Source of the DNA: Escherichia coli
GTDB taxonomy: Bacteria; Pseudomonadota; Gammaproteobacteria; Enterobacterales; Enterobacteriaceae
Reading direction: 5' to 3' (one strand)
Length of the DNA stretch: 64,000 nucleotides
Assembly (NCBI RefSeq): GCF_003334785.1
Contig: NZ_QOWV01000013.1
Shown: in pieces, positions 9,916 to 43,286 of the stretch
How the letters are laid out: the number at the start of each line of letters is the position of its first letter
How positions within the stretch are numbered: position 1 is the stretch's first letter
Notes under the pieces: model-generated
Databases searched by the model: none
Told to the model about the DNA's origin: nothing
What the model saw: only the letters and a program-made list of their open reading frames with translations
Made by a program: the position numbers and the translations under genes

Positions 9916-10140
9916 CTGCCGGATGCGGCGCGAGCGCCTTATCCGGCCTACGGGTCGGCAACAGTTGTAGGCCTGATAAGACGCGACAGCGTCGCATCAG
10001 GCATTGATTGCCGGATGCGGCACAAGTGCCTTATCCGGCCTACAGGTCGGCAATAGTTGTAGGCCTGATAAGACGCGACAGCGTCGCATCAGGCATTGAT
10101 TGCCGGATGCGGCGCGAGCGCCTTATCCGGCCTACGGGTC
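9916..10140. repeat. BIME cluster (tandem REP units) between rhaA and rhaD
   Basis: Three near-identical copies of gccggatgcggcgcgagcgccttatccggcctac alternating with gtaggcctgataagacgcgacagcgtcgcatcaggca. Confidence 0.9.
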
Positions 10141-10178
10141 GTGCATCCGACAACACCGAATTTACAGGAACACAGAAC

Positions 10179-11627: not shown

Positions 11628-12074
11628 ATGGCAGCTCTTACTGCAAGCTGTATTGACCTGAATATTCAGGGCAATGGCGCTTATTCCGTTCTGAAGCAGT
11701 TGGCGACAATAGCGTTACAAAACGGTTTTATCACCGACTCACACCAGTTCCTGCAAACCCTGCTGCTGCGCGAAAAAATGCACTCTACTGGATTTGGTTC
11801 CGGTGTCGCCGTGCCGCACGGTAAAAGCGCCTGCGTTAAACAACCGTTCGTATTATTCGCCCGCAAAGCGCAGGCTATTGACTGGAAAGCCAGCGATGGC
11901 GAAGACGTCAATTGCTGGATCTGCCTCGGCGTGCCGCAAAGCGGCGAAGAGGATCAGGTCAAAATCATCGGCACACTGTGTCGCAAAATTATTCACAAGG
12001 AATTTATTCATCAACTGCAACAGGGCGATACCGACCAGGTGCTTGCCTTGTTAAATCAAACCCTCAGCTCATAA
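11628..12074 (+). CDS. frvA: PTS fructose-like EIIA component
   Basis: 148-aa ORF; position and size match recalled FrvA. Confidence 0.88.
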   Translation: MAALTASCIDLNIQGNGAYSVLKQLATIALQNGFITDSHQFLQTLLLREKMHSTGFGSGVAVPHGKSACVKQPFVLFARKAQAIDWKASDGEDVNCWICLGVPQSGEEDQVKIIGTLCRKIIHKEFIHQLQQGDTDQVLALLNQTLSS

Positions 12075-26012: not shown

Positions 26013-27002
26013 CTACTCTTCTTCGTTCCCGCCCTCTTCATACGGGCCAAATGGCTTCGCGGGCAGAACGATATACGTGCCTTCAAACACTGCACCCGGC
26101 GTCTCGTCGCCAAAGATTTCGACCTGCATCTGCACCCGTGCTTTTCGTCCGCGCGCCAGACGGTCGAGATCGCCGCTTAAGGCACCGAGGTCGGCTACCG
26201 CATGAGGTTTACCGCTAATCGGCTTGCTGTAGCGGATATGCGCATCCGCAAGAATAATCGTTCCGCCGAGGTGGCGTTCACGCAGCATCAGCCAGATAAG
26301 TCCCCAACCGGTGAGCGTCGCCAGTGAGAATAAACTCCCGGCAAACAGCGTATGGTGCGGATTCTGATTGCCGGTTTCTGGCATGGTAGTGATAAATTTT
26401 TGCCCGGTATATTGCTGAATGCGCACGCCCATTTTTTCACTAAGCGGGATATGTTCGTACCACGCCTGTTGCAGCTGCGCGCACCAGTCGCCGCGATGCA
26501 GAATGTCATCCAGAGTGGCGACGGGCTTAATCATCAAAAAATGGCGAATCGGCGTGGTGGTTGGCGTGGTGATTTCTCCCTGATTAACAAACCCCAGCTT
26601 GGCGAAAAACTCCACCGCGTCTTCACGGGCGCTACAGGTCACGCGCTTAACGCCTTCCTGACGCGCCACCGACTCCAGGGTCATCGCCATCAGCGTGCCT
26701 AACCCTTTGTCCTGCACGTCGGGATGAACGGCCATAAAGCGAATGGACGCTTCATTGTCGGCATTAATATACAGTCGGCCTACCGCCACCAGATTACCCT
26801 GCTCGTCGACGACCATCTGGTGATGCGCCATCGCATCCCACGCGTCGCGTTCCGAACCTTTTGGTTGATGCAGGGGCTTACGCAACATTTCCCAGCGAAA
26901 CTGATAGTAACGCTCTAATTCTTCTTCTGTTTGTGGAACCCGAAGGTGATACATAGCGATACTCTCTCTTGTTTCCCGTGACAACCCTGGAAGCTGGCTC
27001 AT
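26013..27002 (-). CDS. yiiD: GNAT acetyltransferase fused to a thioesterase-like domain
   Basis: 329-aa ORF; translationally coupled to dtd (4-nt overlap). Confidence 0.88.
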
Positions 27003-29815: not shown

Positions 29816-30712
29816 TTATACAAAAAGTGACAAAAAAGATCGGGTTTGATCACAGTCAGGGATCCCGGCTCGTCCACCGGGACGTGTGCATTTTAACGCC
29901 GCTACACCGCTGGCGAAGCGGACTGACTCCGCTAAATCCCCACTTGTTGCCAGCGCCACCGCCAAAGCGCCGTGAAAAACATCACCCGCACCTGTGGTAT
30001 CTACCACATCAACTTTGAAGGCCGGTTGATGCTGACGCCCACCATTTTCCAGCCAGTCGCAGCCTGCGCTACCCTGGGTCACATAGACATGACCATTTGT
30101 GAGCGTTTGTGCCTGTTTTAGCGCACTGGCCATCTCTTTCACGCCCGTTAAGCGCGCCAGACCCGGTTCTGAAAAGGCCGCGTGATCGCTTAATGCCACC
30201 AGCTCACTGATATCCTGCGGCGTAATGTCCCCGTCCAGAACGGTCATCACACCCGCCTGACGGGCCAGGGTGAAGGCTTTTTTAGCGCCGTCGTGCCAGC
30301 GTACATCTGCCAGCACAACATCCCACTGAGAGAAATCAATTTCCTCCAACCACTCTGCGTCAGGCAGCAGATCCGGGCTGGGGTAGTTAATGATTATCCG
30401 CTCGCCTTTGGTATCCACCATGATGGCGGATTGCGAAGATTTCGCCTGGTTATACCGTTTGGTGTAACGGGTGTTAACGCCCCAGGATTCCAGCTCTGCC
30501 AGCAGGCTGTTGCCCGTGTCGTCATCACCTACGCGACCAATAAAATCGACCTGCGCCCCCAGCCTTGCCGCCGCAACCGCTGCCGTCGCCGCTGGCCCGC
30601 CACCAACTTCCGTATAATTTCTCGCCACGTATTTACCGCTCTCCGTCGGTAACCCTTCCACGTAATAGATGCGATCCATCACGGTTATACCTACACAAGC
30701 AACACGAATCAT
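29816..30712 (-). CDS. yihV: 6-deoxy-6-sulfofructose kinase (PfkB family)
   Basis: Track ORF 29816..30718; start at MIRVACVGITVMD; PfkB motifs (DTTGAGD). Confidence 0.88.
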   Translation of the reverse strand: MIRVACVGITVMDRIYYVEGLPTESGKYVARNYTEVGGGPAATAAVAAARLGAQVDFIGRVGDDDTGNSLLAELESWGVNTRYTKRYNQAKSSQSAIMVDTKGERIIINYPSPDLLPDAEWLEEIDFSQWDVVLADVRWHDGAKKAFTLARQAGVMTVLDGDITPQDISELVALSDHAAFSEPGLARLTGVKEMASALKQAQTLTNGHVYVTQGSAGCDWLENGGRQHQPAFKVDVVDTTGAGDVFHGALAVALATSGDLAESVRFASGVAALKCTRPGGRAGIPDCDQTRSFLSLFV

Positions 30713-30718
30713 GGTCAT

Positions 30719-30879
30719 TCCTTAAACATTTTGGGATGCGTTCATTTTAATTTCACCAATTGTTTAAAAAGTGACGGCTGTCAATTTTTTGACGATAAAT
30801 TACAAATACGGTCAAAAACAGACAAGTAAAGCATGTCATAAATGACAAAAAGTGACATCACTGTATTCAGGAGAGGGTT
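30719..30879. promoter_or_regulatory. yihV/yihU divergent promoter region with repeated AAAAAGTGAC motifs
   Basis: aaaaagtgac at 30766-30775 and 30847-30856, with local palindromes (tgtcataaatgaca, gtgacatcac); candidate operators for the DeoR-type regulator. Confidence 0.4.
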
Positions 30880-31683
30880 ATGGCAGCAATCGCGTTTATC
30901 GGTTTAGGACAAATGGGTTCGCCAATGGCGAGCAATTTATTGCAGCAAGGGCATCAACTTCGCGTCTTTGATGTGAACGCCGAAGCTGTGCGGCATCTGG
31001 TAGACAAAGGTGCGACTCCCGCCGCCAACCCGGCGCAGGCCGCTAAAGATGCCGAATTTATCATTACCATGTTGCCGAATGGCGATCTGGTGCGCAACGT
31101 GTTGTTCGGTGAAAACGGCGTTTGCGAAGGCTTATCTACCGATGCGCTGGTCATTGATATGTCCACCATCCATCCGCTGCAAACCGATAAATTGATTGCC
31201 GATATGCAAGCCAAAGGCTTCAGCATGATGGATGTTCCGGTAGGCCGTACTTCTGCAAATGCCATTACCGGTACTCTGTTACTGCTGGCTGGCGGCACCG
31301 CTGAACAAGTTGAACGTGCCACACCGATCCTGATGGCGATGGGCAGTGAGTTGATCAACGCTGGCGGTCCGGGCATGGGGATCCGCGTTAAGCTCATCAA
31401 CAACTACATGAGCATCGCGCTCAATGCGCTTTCGGCAGAAGCCGCCGTTTTGTGCGAAGCCCTGAATCTTCCCTTCGATGTTGCCGTCAAAGTGATGAGC
31501 GGTACCGCCGCCGGTAAAGGTCACTTCACCACTTCCTGGCCAAACAAAGTCCTCAGCGGAGATCTTTCTCCCGCCTTCATGATCGATCTTGCCCATAAGG
31601 ATCTTGGCATCGCCCTTGATGTCGCCAACCAGCTGCATGTGCCAATGCCGCTGGGGGCCGCCTCACGGGAGGTTTATAGCTAG
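30880..31683 (+). CDS. yihU: 3-sulfolactaldehyde reductase, C-terminally truncated by an in-frame amber codon (267 codons; 30 intact codons continue to 31776)
   Basis: Translation matches recalled YihU through ...ASREVYS, then TAG where I recall a Gln codon; downstream frame reads [30 protein letters not shown] then TAA at 31774-31776. Confidence 0.85.
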
Positions 31684-31799
31684 GCGCGCGCAGCGGGTCG
31701 CGGTCGCCAGGACTGGTCCGCCATTCTGGAACAGGTCCGTGTCAGTGCCGGGATGACTGCCAAAGTAAAAATGTAACGACTGGATAAAGGAATAAATGA

Positions 31800-32678
31800 A
31801 TGAATAAGTACACCATCAACGACATTACGCGCGCATCGGGCGGTTTTGCCATGCTGGCGGTCGATCAGCGCGAAGCCATGCGCATGATGTTTGCCGCGGC
31901 TGGGGCACCCGCTCCGGTAGCCGATAGCGTTTTAACTGATTTCAAAGTTAACGCTGCAAAGGCCCTCTCGCCTTATGCCTCGGCGATTCTGGTAGATCAA
32001 CAATTCTGCTACCGCCAGGTGGTTGAGCAAAACGCGATTGCCAAAAGTTGCGCCATGATTGTCGCCGCCGATGAGTTCATTCCTGGCAACGGTATTCCGG
32101 TCGATAGCGTGGTTATTGACCGCAAAATCAATCCGCTACAGATCAAACAAGACGGTGGCAAAGCCTTAAAACTGCTGGTGCTGTGGCGTAGTGATGAAGA
32201 TGCGCAGCAACGTCTGGATATGGTGAAAGAGTTCAACGAACTGTGCCACTCACACGGTCTGGTAAGCATCATTGAGCCAGTCGTCCGCCCACCGCGTCGT
32301 GGCGATAAATTCGATCGCGAACAAGCGATCATCGATGCCGCCAAAGAGCTGGGCGACAGTGGCGCTGACCTCTACAAAGTTGAAATGCCGCTTTATGGCA
32401 AAGGTCCGCAACAAGAGCTTCTCTGTGCTTCACAACGTCTGAATGACCATATCAATATGCCATGGGTGATCCTCTCTTCCGGTGTCGACGAAAAACTGTT
32501 CCCGCGTGCCGTACGCGTGGCAATGACGGCGGGCGCATCGGGATTCCTGGCAGGCCGTGCAGTCTGGGCATCGGTCGTCGGTTTACCAGACAACGAGCTG
32601 ATGCTGCGTGACGTTTGCGCACCGAAATTACAACAACTTGGCGATATCGTCGACGAAATGATGGCTAAACGCCGCTAA
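31800..32678 (+). CDS. yihT: 6-deoxy-6-sulfofructose-1-phosphate aldolase
   Basis: 292-aa ORF, class I aldolase family. Confidence 0.88.
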
Positions 32679-40938: not shown

Positions 40939-42204
40939 TTAAGCTTCAGCCGCCAGCATCTCTTTCTTACGTTGGCTAATACGCTTAACCAGCATTACGG
41001 AAACCACCGCACCACTGAATGCGAAGCAGGCCATAATGCCAAACACGATTTTGTAGCCAATAATCCCCGGATTTAAATCCAGAATGTAGCCATACAGACT
41101 GAAGCAGAACATCGCCGGAGCGTAACCAATAAAGCTACCCAACGCCATCGCCGCACCTGTTTTATTTTCAGCAATTTTTGCTTCGCCGATAGGTGCAAAA
41201 AATACGGCTCGCTGTGTAAAGACTATCGCGCCAAAGCCCAGCGTACATGCCATCCCTAAATAGACCGGCATACTTTCGTGCGGCAGCATAATCAACAGTA
41301 CGAGCGCAGCGGTACTAATGATAAAGGTGTAGCATAGATATTTACTTGGCGATTTCAGGATCTTATCTGAAATCATGCCACCAATCGGTCCACCAATCAT
41401 TTTCAGACAGTATTGGTTAATGATGCCGTAAGCCCCCACCAGCGCAACGGGCAATAGATAGATGTTTTTCAGGAATGGAATGAAGAATGTCAGGCCACAG
41501 TAAACCGCGTAAACGAAGAAGACGTTAAAAGCGATAAGCCAGATAGTTTTGTCTTTCAGCACCGAGGTCATACTGGTGTTTTTCGATGCTCCGTCTTCTT
41601 TTTTCACCTCAACGGACGGTGCCTCTTCTTTGTCATTCAGGACAAAGAAAATAATAATGCCTACGGCAATCACAATAAGGGAATAGAACCAGATGCCTGC
41701 TTTAAAACCTAATAAGCCACTGCCAAACCAGGTAAATACTGCCAACGCAGAAAATGCCACCACGGTATCGACAATGCCACGCCCTGTTTCGAAGAAGCCA
41801 AACAACAGACCTTGTTGTTCGCTATTGCCCAATCGACTTACCGACTTGAGCAAGACCGGCCAGTTCATCATGTCGCAAGTAACGCCAAATAGCGCCCAGA
41901 CAAAGAGGATGCCCCAATACCCCGGCATTGTCGTCAAATAAACACCCAGTAATCCTGTCGCAATGAGTGAGAATGACATGGTGTATCTGCGCGGTAGTTT
42001 ATCGGCAAAATAAATAGACAGAAAAAAGCCCACTGTGGTGACAAATGAGTTTACCGACATAGCATTACCAATTTGACCATTGGTCAAATGGAAATATTCC
42101 TGCATCGGGATATAAAACGCATCTTTCAGCGACGGTAATTTATAAATTGTACCGCCACACAGTGTTAATAGACTAAATAACGCCCATTTCTTTTTCGTGA
42201 GCAT
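40939..42204 (-). CDS. yihN: MFS transporter YihN
   Basis: 421-aa polytopic membrane protein. Confidence 0.85.
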   Translation of the reverse strand: MLTKKKWALFSLLTLCGGTIYKLPSLKDAFYIPMQEYFHLTNGQIGNAMSVNSFVTTVGFFLSIYFADKLPRRYTMSFSLIATGLLGVYLTTMPGYWGILFVWALFGVTCDMMNWPVLLKSVSRLGNSEQQGLLFGFFETGRGIVDTVVAFSALAVFTWFGSGLLGFKAGIWFYSLIVIAVGIIIFFVLNDKEEAPSVEVKKEDGASKNTSMTSVLKDKTIWLIAFNVFFVYAVYCGLTFFIPFLKNIYLLPVALVGAYGIINQYCLKMIGGPIGGMISDKILKSPSKYLCYTFIISTAALVLLIMLPHESMPVYLGMACTLGFGAIVFTQRAVFFAPIGEAKIAENKTGAAMALGSFIGYAPAMFCFSLYGYILDLNPGIIGYKIVFGIMACFAFSGAVVSVMLVKRISQRKKEMLAAEA

Positions 42205-42305: not shown

Positions 42306-43286
42306 TTAGTGGTTCAGAAGATGGTTTGCCTCTTGTTTGATTTGTTGTAGTACGTTACGCACATGATTTATCTGATTAATTGCATCTTCTTTTTCTTTAC
42401 GTAACCGCGCATCCAGTAAATGATTTTCTGGCAATGGTGTTTCACTCATCTGGCGATAAGGGATCCACGGATTATCATCTTCGTCTTCAAAGCGGAACGC
42501 CGGCGCATAGTAATCAACCTCTTCTTCCAGGCCATATGCCGTCACCTGCGGCTCATCATCACCCAGGCAGATAAGGTGCGTTAATAACGCTTTGAACGGC
42601 ATATCACCCTGACCTGAAATACAGGCTTTATGACCCAGGCCACCCGGTTCTTTAACGATCAAGGCATCTTTGATATGGACCTGGGTAATATGCGGTGCCA
42701 TCGTTTTTAAAGCGTCGATGGGATGCTCATTTGCATTGATCATGTTCGCAAAATCTAACAGTAAGGAAAGAGATTCCATCTCACTTTCTTTGACCAGCGA
42801 CACCAGCTCATGACTTTTTAAATCTTCATGCTGCTCGATCGTAAAAGTCAGGCCGCTGTCCTGATACGTTTCCCGTACATAGGCAATGTCGTTAGCGATA
42901 ATCGATAATACGTCGCGCAAATTACCTTCATAACGTGGATAAAAACGTACGGACGATGCCCCAGTTTTCAACGCGATGGCGACGGCTTCGTCAATAGATG
43001 CCTTATCTGAGGCGCTGGTTTCAATATGAATATCAAGGTTCAGACGGCGGGCTTTATCCCCAAAGGCAGAGAGTTCTTTATCGTCCATATTACCAAGAGA
43101 AAAACGCTCGCCATCGAGAACATGGATTTTGACGCCACGTAGATTATTTTCACTTGCGATATCAAGTAAATCAGCAGGCAACACTCTTTCCAGCCGCATA
43201 TTTAAATGAAAGGCATAAGCATGTAAATAAAGAGGAAGAGTGTCGACACGTTGTAGAATCTTTCTTGCGTTATTTATTGTCACCAT
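42306..43286 (-). CDS. yihM: Sugar-phosphate isomerase/epimerase (xylose-isomerase-like TIM barrel) YihM
   Basis: 326-aa ORF. Confidence 0.82.
   Translation of the reverse strand: MVTINNARKILQRVDTLPLYLHAYAFHLNMRLERVLPADLLDIASENNLRGVKIHVLDGERFSLGNMDDKELSAFGDKARRLNLDIHIETSASDKASIDEAVAIALKTGASSVRFYPRYEGNLRDVLSIIANDIAYVRETYQDSGLTFTIEQHEDLKSHELVSLVKESEMESLSLLLDFANMINANEHPIDALKTMAPHITQVHIKDALIVKEPGGLGHKACISGQGDMPFKALLTHLICLGDDEPQVTAYGLEEEVDYYAPAFRFEDEDDNPWIPYRQMSETPLPENHLLDARLRKEKEDAINQINHVRNVLQQIKQEANHLLNH

Follow-up and report, generated by a model that had tools for sequence, protein, structure and literature searches.

Part of the sulfoquinovose (yih) cassette of Escherichia coli lies within the window, which is the whole 64,000-nucleotide stretch of DNA analysed here, and its sulfolactaldehyde 3-reductase gene is interrupted by an amber codon. 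The features around this codon are as follows.

29816–30712, minus strand: yihV, sulfofructose kinase, divergent from yihU and intact (open reading frame list).
30811–30827, no strand assigned: two single-nucleotide polymorphisms (SNPs), 30811 G and 30827 T, in the promoter region between yihV and yihU, linked to the amber codon in the window and in seven complete genomes.
30880–31776, plus strand: yihU (squU), which codes for sulfolactaldehyde 3-reductase and is a pseudogene in the window, broken by one internal stop; its only difference from the MG1655 gene is at 31681.
30880–31683, plus strand: truncated open reading frame encoding YihU residues 1–267 (open reading frame list; exact product on 707 public contigs).
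31680–31684, no strand assigned: mutated Dcm site, CTAGG here versus CCAGG in MG1655, with the inner cytosine changed (sequence comparison).
31681–31683, plus strand: amber codon TAG in place of Gln268 CAG, carried by 8 of 4018 complete genomes.
31684–31776, plus strand: orphaned yihU 3' end (codons 269–298 plus TAA), now untranslated; identical to MG1655 and encoding the conserved G273/D278 loop and helix 279–289.
31800–32678, plus strand: yihT, sulfofructose-phosphate aldolase; intact, and the first gene downstream of yihU (open reading frame list; the protein of carriers is identical to that of K-12, WP_001046453.1).

The yihU reading frame that starts at 30880 encodes 267 amino acids, ends with ...ASREVYS and stops at TAG (31681–31683). 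The same frame runs on through 30 more sense codons to TAA at 31774–31776, and translation of 30880–31776 in this frame gives one internal stop. Both ends of the frame had been given in the original prediction, and the open reading frame list and translation confirm them; its distances to yihT (start 31800), 116 nt from TAG and 23 nt from TAA, also match the coordinates. The truncation by an in-frame amber codon stands, but it costs YihU 31 residues (268–298) and not the 30 first counted. An open run of 30 codons has a ~24% chance of occurring in random sequence, and the open frame beyond TAG means little when taken alone. The amber codon is noteworthy because the window differs from K-12 MG1655 at only four bases over 6.2 kb (30811, 30827, 30859 and 31681), one of which is the C>T change at 31681; the other three all lie within the yihV-yihU intergenic region. 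The 93 nt that follow TAG are identical to the 3' end of K-12 yihU. Alignment to the reference gene places CAG (Gln268) at the amber codon in MG1655, where YihU has the 298 amino acids given in the original prediction. A single C>T change in a Gln codon, as was proposed there, thus created the amber codon. With Gln at position 268, the window product is identical to the crystal chain of 6SM7/6SMY/6SMZ over residues 1–298. Orthology to K-12 YihU rests on one nucleotide difference in 897 nt, and the gene order of the yih cassette (csqR-yihV / yihU-yihT-yihS-...) is the same as in MG1655. Every test run identifies the locus as yihU, with an encoded product that would be without a complete C-terminal domain. 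In annotation, yihU should here be called a pseudogene with an internal stop and not a 267-residue enzyme.

Differences from MG1655 also occur elsewhere in the window. At 9917–10141, between rhaA and rhaD, a 92-bp REP-like tandem repeat has 2.4 copies versus 4.4 in MG1655, and the window is 184 bp shorter. Three of the four MG1655 differences in the last 12.6 kb fall at 63790–63923, at the 5S rRNA gene with which the window closes, two of them inside rrf; this cluster may be variation among rRNA operon copies.

The mutated base lies in a site for Dcm methylation, a point absent from the original prediction. Nucleotides 801–805 of K-12 yihU are CCAGG in the codon context AGC-CAG-GCG, and of these five bases it is the inner C that has mutated; the ancestral CCWGG site and its C>T derivative are AGCCAGGCG in MG1655 and AGCTAGGCG in the window. 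There are 160 CCWGG sites in the 64-kb window, and CTAGG occurs once, at the yihU amber codon. The tetranucleotide CTAG is itself scarce in the window (6 observed versus ~250 expected from base composition). The closest complete genome, LR-64-2, carries both dcm and vsr in intact form. Dcm sites in lacI are the classical amber hotspots of Coulondre and Miller. Deamination of 5-methylcytosine produces a T:G mismatch, and Vsr repair normally restores the original pair (PMC2715241). For yihU, the inner C of CCAGG would have been methylated by Dcm and would have deaminated spontaneously to T, and the T:G mismatch would have escaped very-short-patch repair by Vsr, giving CTAGG and turning CAG into TAG. 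Judging from the sequence context, 5-methylcytosine deamination at a Dcm hotspot is the most likely cause of the amber codon.

Other yihU truncations provide a wider setting for this mutation. An exact look-up took in eight other possible truncations, with contig counts that reflect clonal expansion and not mutation rate. Stops at other Dcm-type sites (W220* on 43 contigs, Q277* on 36) are about as frequent as those at non-Dcm sites (W279* on 74, Q285* on 53, Q143* on 40 and Q251* on 10), and these counts, which track clonal expansion, do not separate Dcm from non-Dcm nonsense sites within the eight-truncation look-up. A Dcm-type transition accounts for one (17914) of the 25 remaining variable sites in 40 kb, versus 0.5% of positions, with an estimated probability of ~0.12 for at least one. 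This site in fdhD is a synonymous G>A change opposite the inner C of a CCAGG, and it sets FDAARGOS_1248 and 200112 apart from the other carriers. That yihU nonsense alleles are common in E. coli suggests weak purifying selection on this step.

The allele is present well beyond the window. A 60-nt query centred on the amber codon was searched in complete E. coli genomes, 4018 of which have the locus. Eight have an exact TAG match and the other 4010 differ; in all eight, PGAP labels yihU in RefSeq as a pseudogene with an ‘internal stop’. The contigs with the exact 267-residue product are in NCBI, ENA and Logan, and named protein entries include BEB02735.1 and that of E. coli HVH 209. A table of variable sites covering 39.7 kb (window positions 12000–51711) has the combination 30811G/30827T/31681T in perfect linkage in the window and seven genomes (LR-64-2, FDAARGOS_1248, JKHS016, 200112, AST198, OZ121069 and E423), versus A/C/C in MG1655 and the most similar non-carriers (FDAARGOS_1337, MS 124-1 and NCTC9087). 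The seven carriers come from four continents (Ecuador, USA, Mali, Cambodia, China and, for two of them, Japan). In the same table, carriers differ from each other at up to ~8 sites and form nested subclades. LR-64-2 is the closest relative, with 3 mismatches to the window in 40,060 bases; no complete genome matches the window exactly, which has two private SNPs (25515 and 41807). Coding differences among carriers include the private change at 41807, an Arg133 to Leu missense in yihN, a Phe177 to Leu change at 42756 in yihM common to the window, JKHS016 and AST198, and yihQ T161I and yihP I249N in the subclade of FDAARGOS_1248 and 200112.

The haplotype appears to have been built up in steps. 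Among 3612 genomes, 30811G/30827T is confined to these carriers. Isolate NRZ101541 has the intermediate G/C/CAG, and two metagenome scaffolds have G/C/TAG. These intermediates set the order of events as 30811 A>G, then the amber mutation, then 30827 C>T, as read from the haplotypes. The two linked SNPs are at −69 and −53 from the yihU ATG in an intergenic region that spans 30719–30879. Transcription starts of yihU have been mapped at −15 to −92 (PMC5816610), and both SNPs fall inside this cluster; a consensus promoter scan of the yihV-yihU intergenic region found no sites. Haplotype linkage and spread indicate that the yihU amber codon has been inherited within a K-12-like natural E. coli lineage that has diversified and spans continents. 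Of the three origins raised in the original prediction, strain polymorphism thus holds and sequencing error does not, given the linked SNPs and the 707 contigs, while a recent mutation is only partly right for a lineage that has diversified and spread between continents.

The same Q268* stop also occurs on a second yihU background, with N73S and G84S, that is ~2% divergent in DNA, on 66 + 23 contigs (89). The 267-residue product of OkiPb01695 (N73S, G84S, W220S, Q268*) is on the 66, which are further to the 707, and N73S/G84S with Q268* and an intact W220 is on the 23. The full-length N73S/G84S allele is very common in the public protein collection, in which full-length YihU with W220S is absent. 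Since Q268* is present with W220 intact and full-length W220S is not found, W220S arose after the stop. The sequences indicate that a second real lineage carries Q268*. A Dcm hotspot would plausibly explain the recurrence of the stop on this background. The two backgrounds are identical over the 417 bp around the stop, so it could also have arrived by a short recombination patch and not by an independent mutation. OkiPb01695 has three ambers in the cassette (yihV Q213*, yihU Q268* and yihQ W639*), all of Dcm type, and its YihU W220S change is at another Dcm position. Between yihR and yihQ, its divergent yih cassette (18165–26336 of its own sequence) contains an additional gene for a TauE/SafE sulfite exporter. 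That its three ambers are Nanopore artefacts is largely rejected by the exact product on the 66 other contigs. The cassette of this lineage appears to be decaying, and its later yihV, yihQ and W220 changes fit a dead pathway.

The consequence for the protein can be predicted from the domains that are lost and kept. Translation would end at codon 268 and yield a 267-residue protein. Pfam matches are NAD_binding_2 (PF03446) at residues 4–160 (E = 1e-48) and NAD_binding_11 (PF14833) at residues 165–284; the stop removes the last 17 residues of the second match and leaves the C-terminal domain incomplete. The Rossmann domain and the catalytic Lys171 lie upstream of the stop and would be retained. 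An alignment of 76 homologues with 31–48% identity, selected for full length, has K171 invariant and G273 and D278, both beyond the stop, conserved at 90% or more. The lost segment thus holds two of the ~20 nearly invariant residues of the family, and all 75 of 75 full-length homologues reach at least position 288, in a set chosen for length. An AlphaFold model built from the alignment (pLDDT 97.6) has a helix at 257–271, a loop at 272–278, a helix at 279–289 and a tail. On this model and alignment, the 267-residue product is without the last turn of helix 257–271, the G273-x-G275-x-x-D278 loop, helix 279–289 and the tail. The view that the stop removes C-terminal helical elements of a beta-hydroxyacid dehydrogenase fold is therefore upheld by Pfam, the homologue alignment and the model alike. 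Since the conserved loop that holds G273 and D278 is lost together with the final helix, loss or severe reduction of YihU function is likely on this model. Sulfolactaldehyde reductase would be null or severely weakened, with the rest of the sulfoquinovose cassette intact.

Effects on neighbouring genes would probably be small. In the seven K-12-like carriers every yih gene besides yihU is intact and the cassette has no excess of SNPs (~6 of 18 derived SNPs in 28% of the region, by our own tally), and accelerated cassette decay in these carriers is rejected on that account. Strong Rho polarity on yihT would be unlikely: the 116 nt that are no longer translated contain 38 G and 27 C, a G-rich composition, and promoters of yihT itself have been mapped (PMC5816610).

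The alternative that survives best is a functionally mild allele, in which either the 267-residue protein is active enough or tRNA-Gln(CUG) reads through UAG, so that the pathway works and the stop is near neutral. Insertion of Gln at UAG occurs in suppressor-free E. coli, and the retained Rossmann domain and K171, the intact remainder of the cassette without a SNP excess and the wide distribution of the lineage all agree with such an allele. Basal readthrough, however, is usually well below 1%. The lost part includes two nearly invariant residues and one complete helix from a domain that was modelled with confidence, the length-selected homologues all extend to position 288 or beyond, and the cassette has decayed further in the second lineage. 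We consider a mild allele unlikely.

Selection for yihU inactivation, possibly together with the two promoter-region SNPs, is a second alternative; the benefit could be, for example, to stop NADH-consuming formation of DHPS or gamma-hydroxybutyrate. Three changes lie close together, within 870 bp, in 40 kb that do not otherwise vary, two of them in the cluster where yihU promoters have been mapped, Q268* outnumbers every other yihU truncation tested by about ten to one, and the stop recurs on a second background. Against this, drift within a clone explains the stepwise build-up of the haplotype equally well, clonal expansion can account for the allele frequency, and the consensus promoter scan gave nothing to interpret. 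Selected inactivation is thus very doubtful. There is a similarly slim chance that the amber codon is maintained by selection, either because a knock-out or knock-down of sulfolactaldehyde/succinic-semialdehyde reduction is adaptive and was selected along with the promoter SNPs, or because the stop is leaky and near-cognate readthrough with Gln leaves a deliberately low level of wild-type enzyme. If this were true, recurrence at a Dcm site would give gut E. coli a hotspot-driven and reversible way to switch its sulfoquinovose metabolism.

Suppression of the amber codon, by supE (glnV with a CUA anticodon) or another suppressor tRNA, would allow full-length wild-type YihU still to be made. As the original prediction said, supE inserts Gln at UAG, and this would restore the wild-type residue; as genetics the point is sound, but it does not carry over to this lineage. 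A search of the genome collection for the supE44 form of glnV matched 155 genomes, yet the 40 genomes among the matches listed are all K-12 laboratory derivatives, and the window is not K-12 (30811, 30827, 30859). The 64-kb window has no tRNA genes. In LR-64-2, the metT-leuW-glnUW-metU-glnVX cluster was found by synteny; glnV and glnX have the wild-type CTG anticodon and glnU and glnW have TTG, with no CUA-anticodon tRNA-Gln among these four genes. Taken as a proxy, these wild-type glnV and glnX genes of the closest relative indicate that supE suppression is not at work, and suppression of any kind is highly improbable. A sequencing or assembly artefact, such as a Nanopore basecalling error at Dcm-methylated CCAGG, can hardly be entertained: CCAGG is indeed a Dcm motif, modified DNA is known to provoke Nanopore read errors (PMC11610603) and OkiPb01695 has its three Dcm-site ambers in one cassette, but TAG is inherited with two non-Dcm SNPs ~860 bp upstream in the window and seven independent genomes, the window and LR-64-2 agree at all of the other 200 Dcm positions in 40 kb, 707 independent contigs from several sources carry the exact product and 66 further ones the OkiPb01695 version, and current R10.4.1 models are ~99% accurate within CCWGG (PMC11610603).

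Taken as a whole, a genuine, vertically inherited yihU nonsense allele that most likely originated by Dcm-site deamination and would leave YihU null or severely weakened is the best explanation, and we hold it to be quite probable. The carriers are K-12-like E. coli of commensal and clinical origin, and this sub-lineage is probably unable to complete the sulfo-EMP pathway normally at the step from sulfolactaldehyde to DHPS. This is relevant to genome-based prediction of sulfoquinovose use and of DHPS cross-feeding in the gut. The allele is also a natural example, on two yihU backgrounds, of the textbook CCAGG to CTAGG amber mutation.

Several known systems can be compared with this locus. Structures of YihU (6SM7/6SMY/6SMZ) and of other beta-hydroxyacid dehydrogenases (3CKY, 1VPD, 2GF2) share the same two-domain fold, and residues 1–267 of the window product are identical to 6SM7; residues 268–298 are in the 6SM7 chain sequence and are absent from the window product, whereas 16 other PDB homologues all align through the C-terminal part to about residue 275–290. 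The Dcm amber hotspots of lacI and their Vsr repair (PMC2715241) have the same change of CCAGG to CTAGG at the inner C, with CAG (Gln) becoming TAG; the lacI hotspots belong to a laboratory mutation spectrum, whereas the yihU amber codon is a natural polymorphism fixed in a lineage. Nissle 1917 has a short yihTUVW form of the yih cassette, a large structural truncation with loss of induction (PMC12608037), and is likewise a case in which particular strains have lost sulfo-EMP capacity, or have it weakened, at this locus; there a large part of the cassette is truncated, whereas here a single nonsense codon lies in one enzyme gene of a long cassette that is otherwise complete. The closest counterparts are the yihU pseudogenes called by PGAP in RefSeq (FDAARGOS_1248 I6J78_RS01045 and LR-64-2 AABJ48_RS13460) and the deposited 267-residue proteins, which have the same TAG, flanks and linked SNPs; these pseudogenes have no difference from the window at the locus. 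Papers on yih cassette diversity and yihU mutations make no mention of the amber allele. It is already known from public databases, where it is annotated as a pseudogene, and no new mechanism is needed: the yihU amber codon is a natural pseudogene allele of an ordinary, already-known kind.
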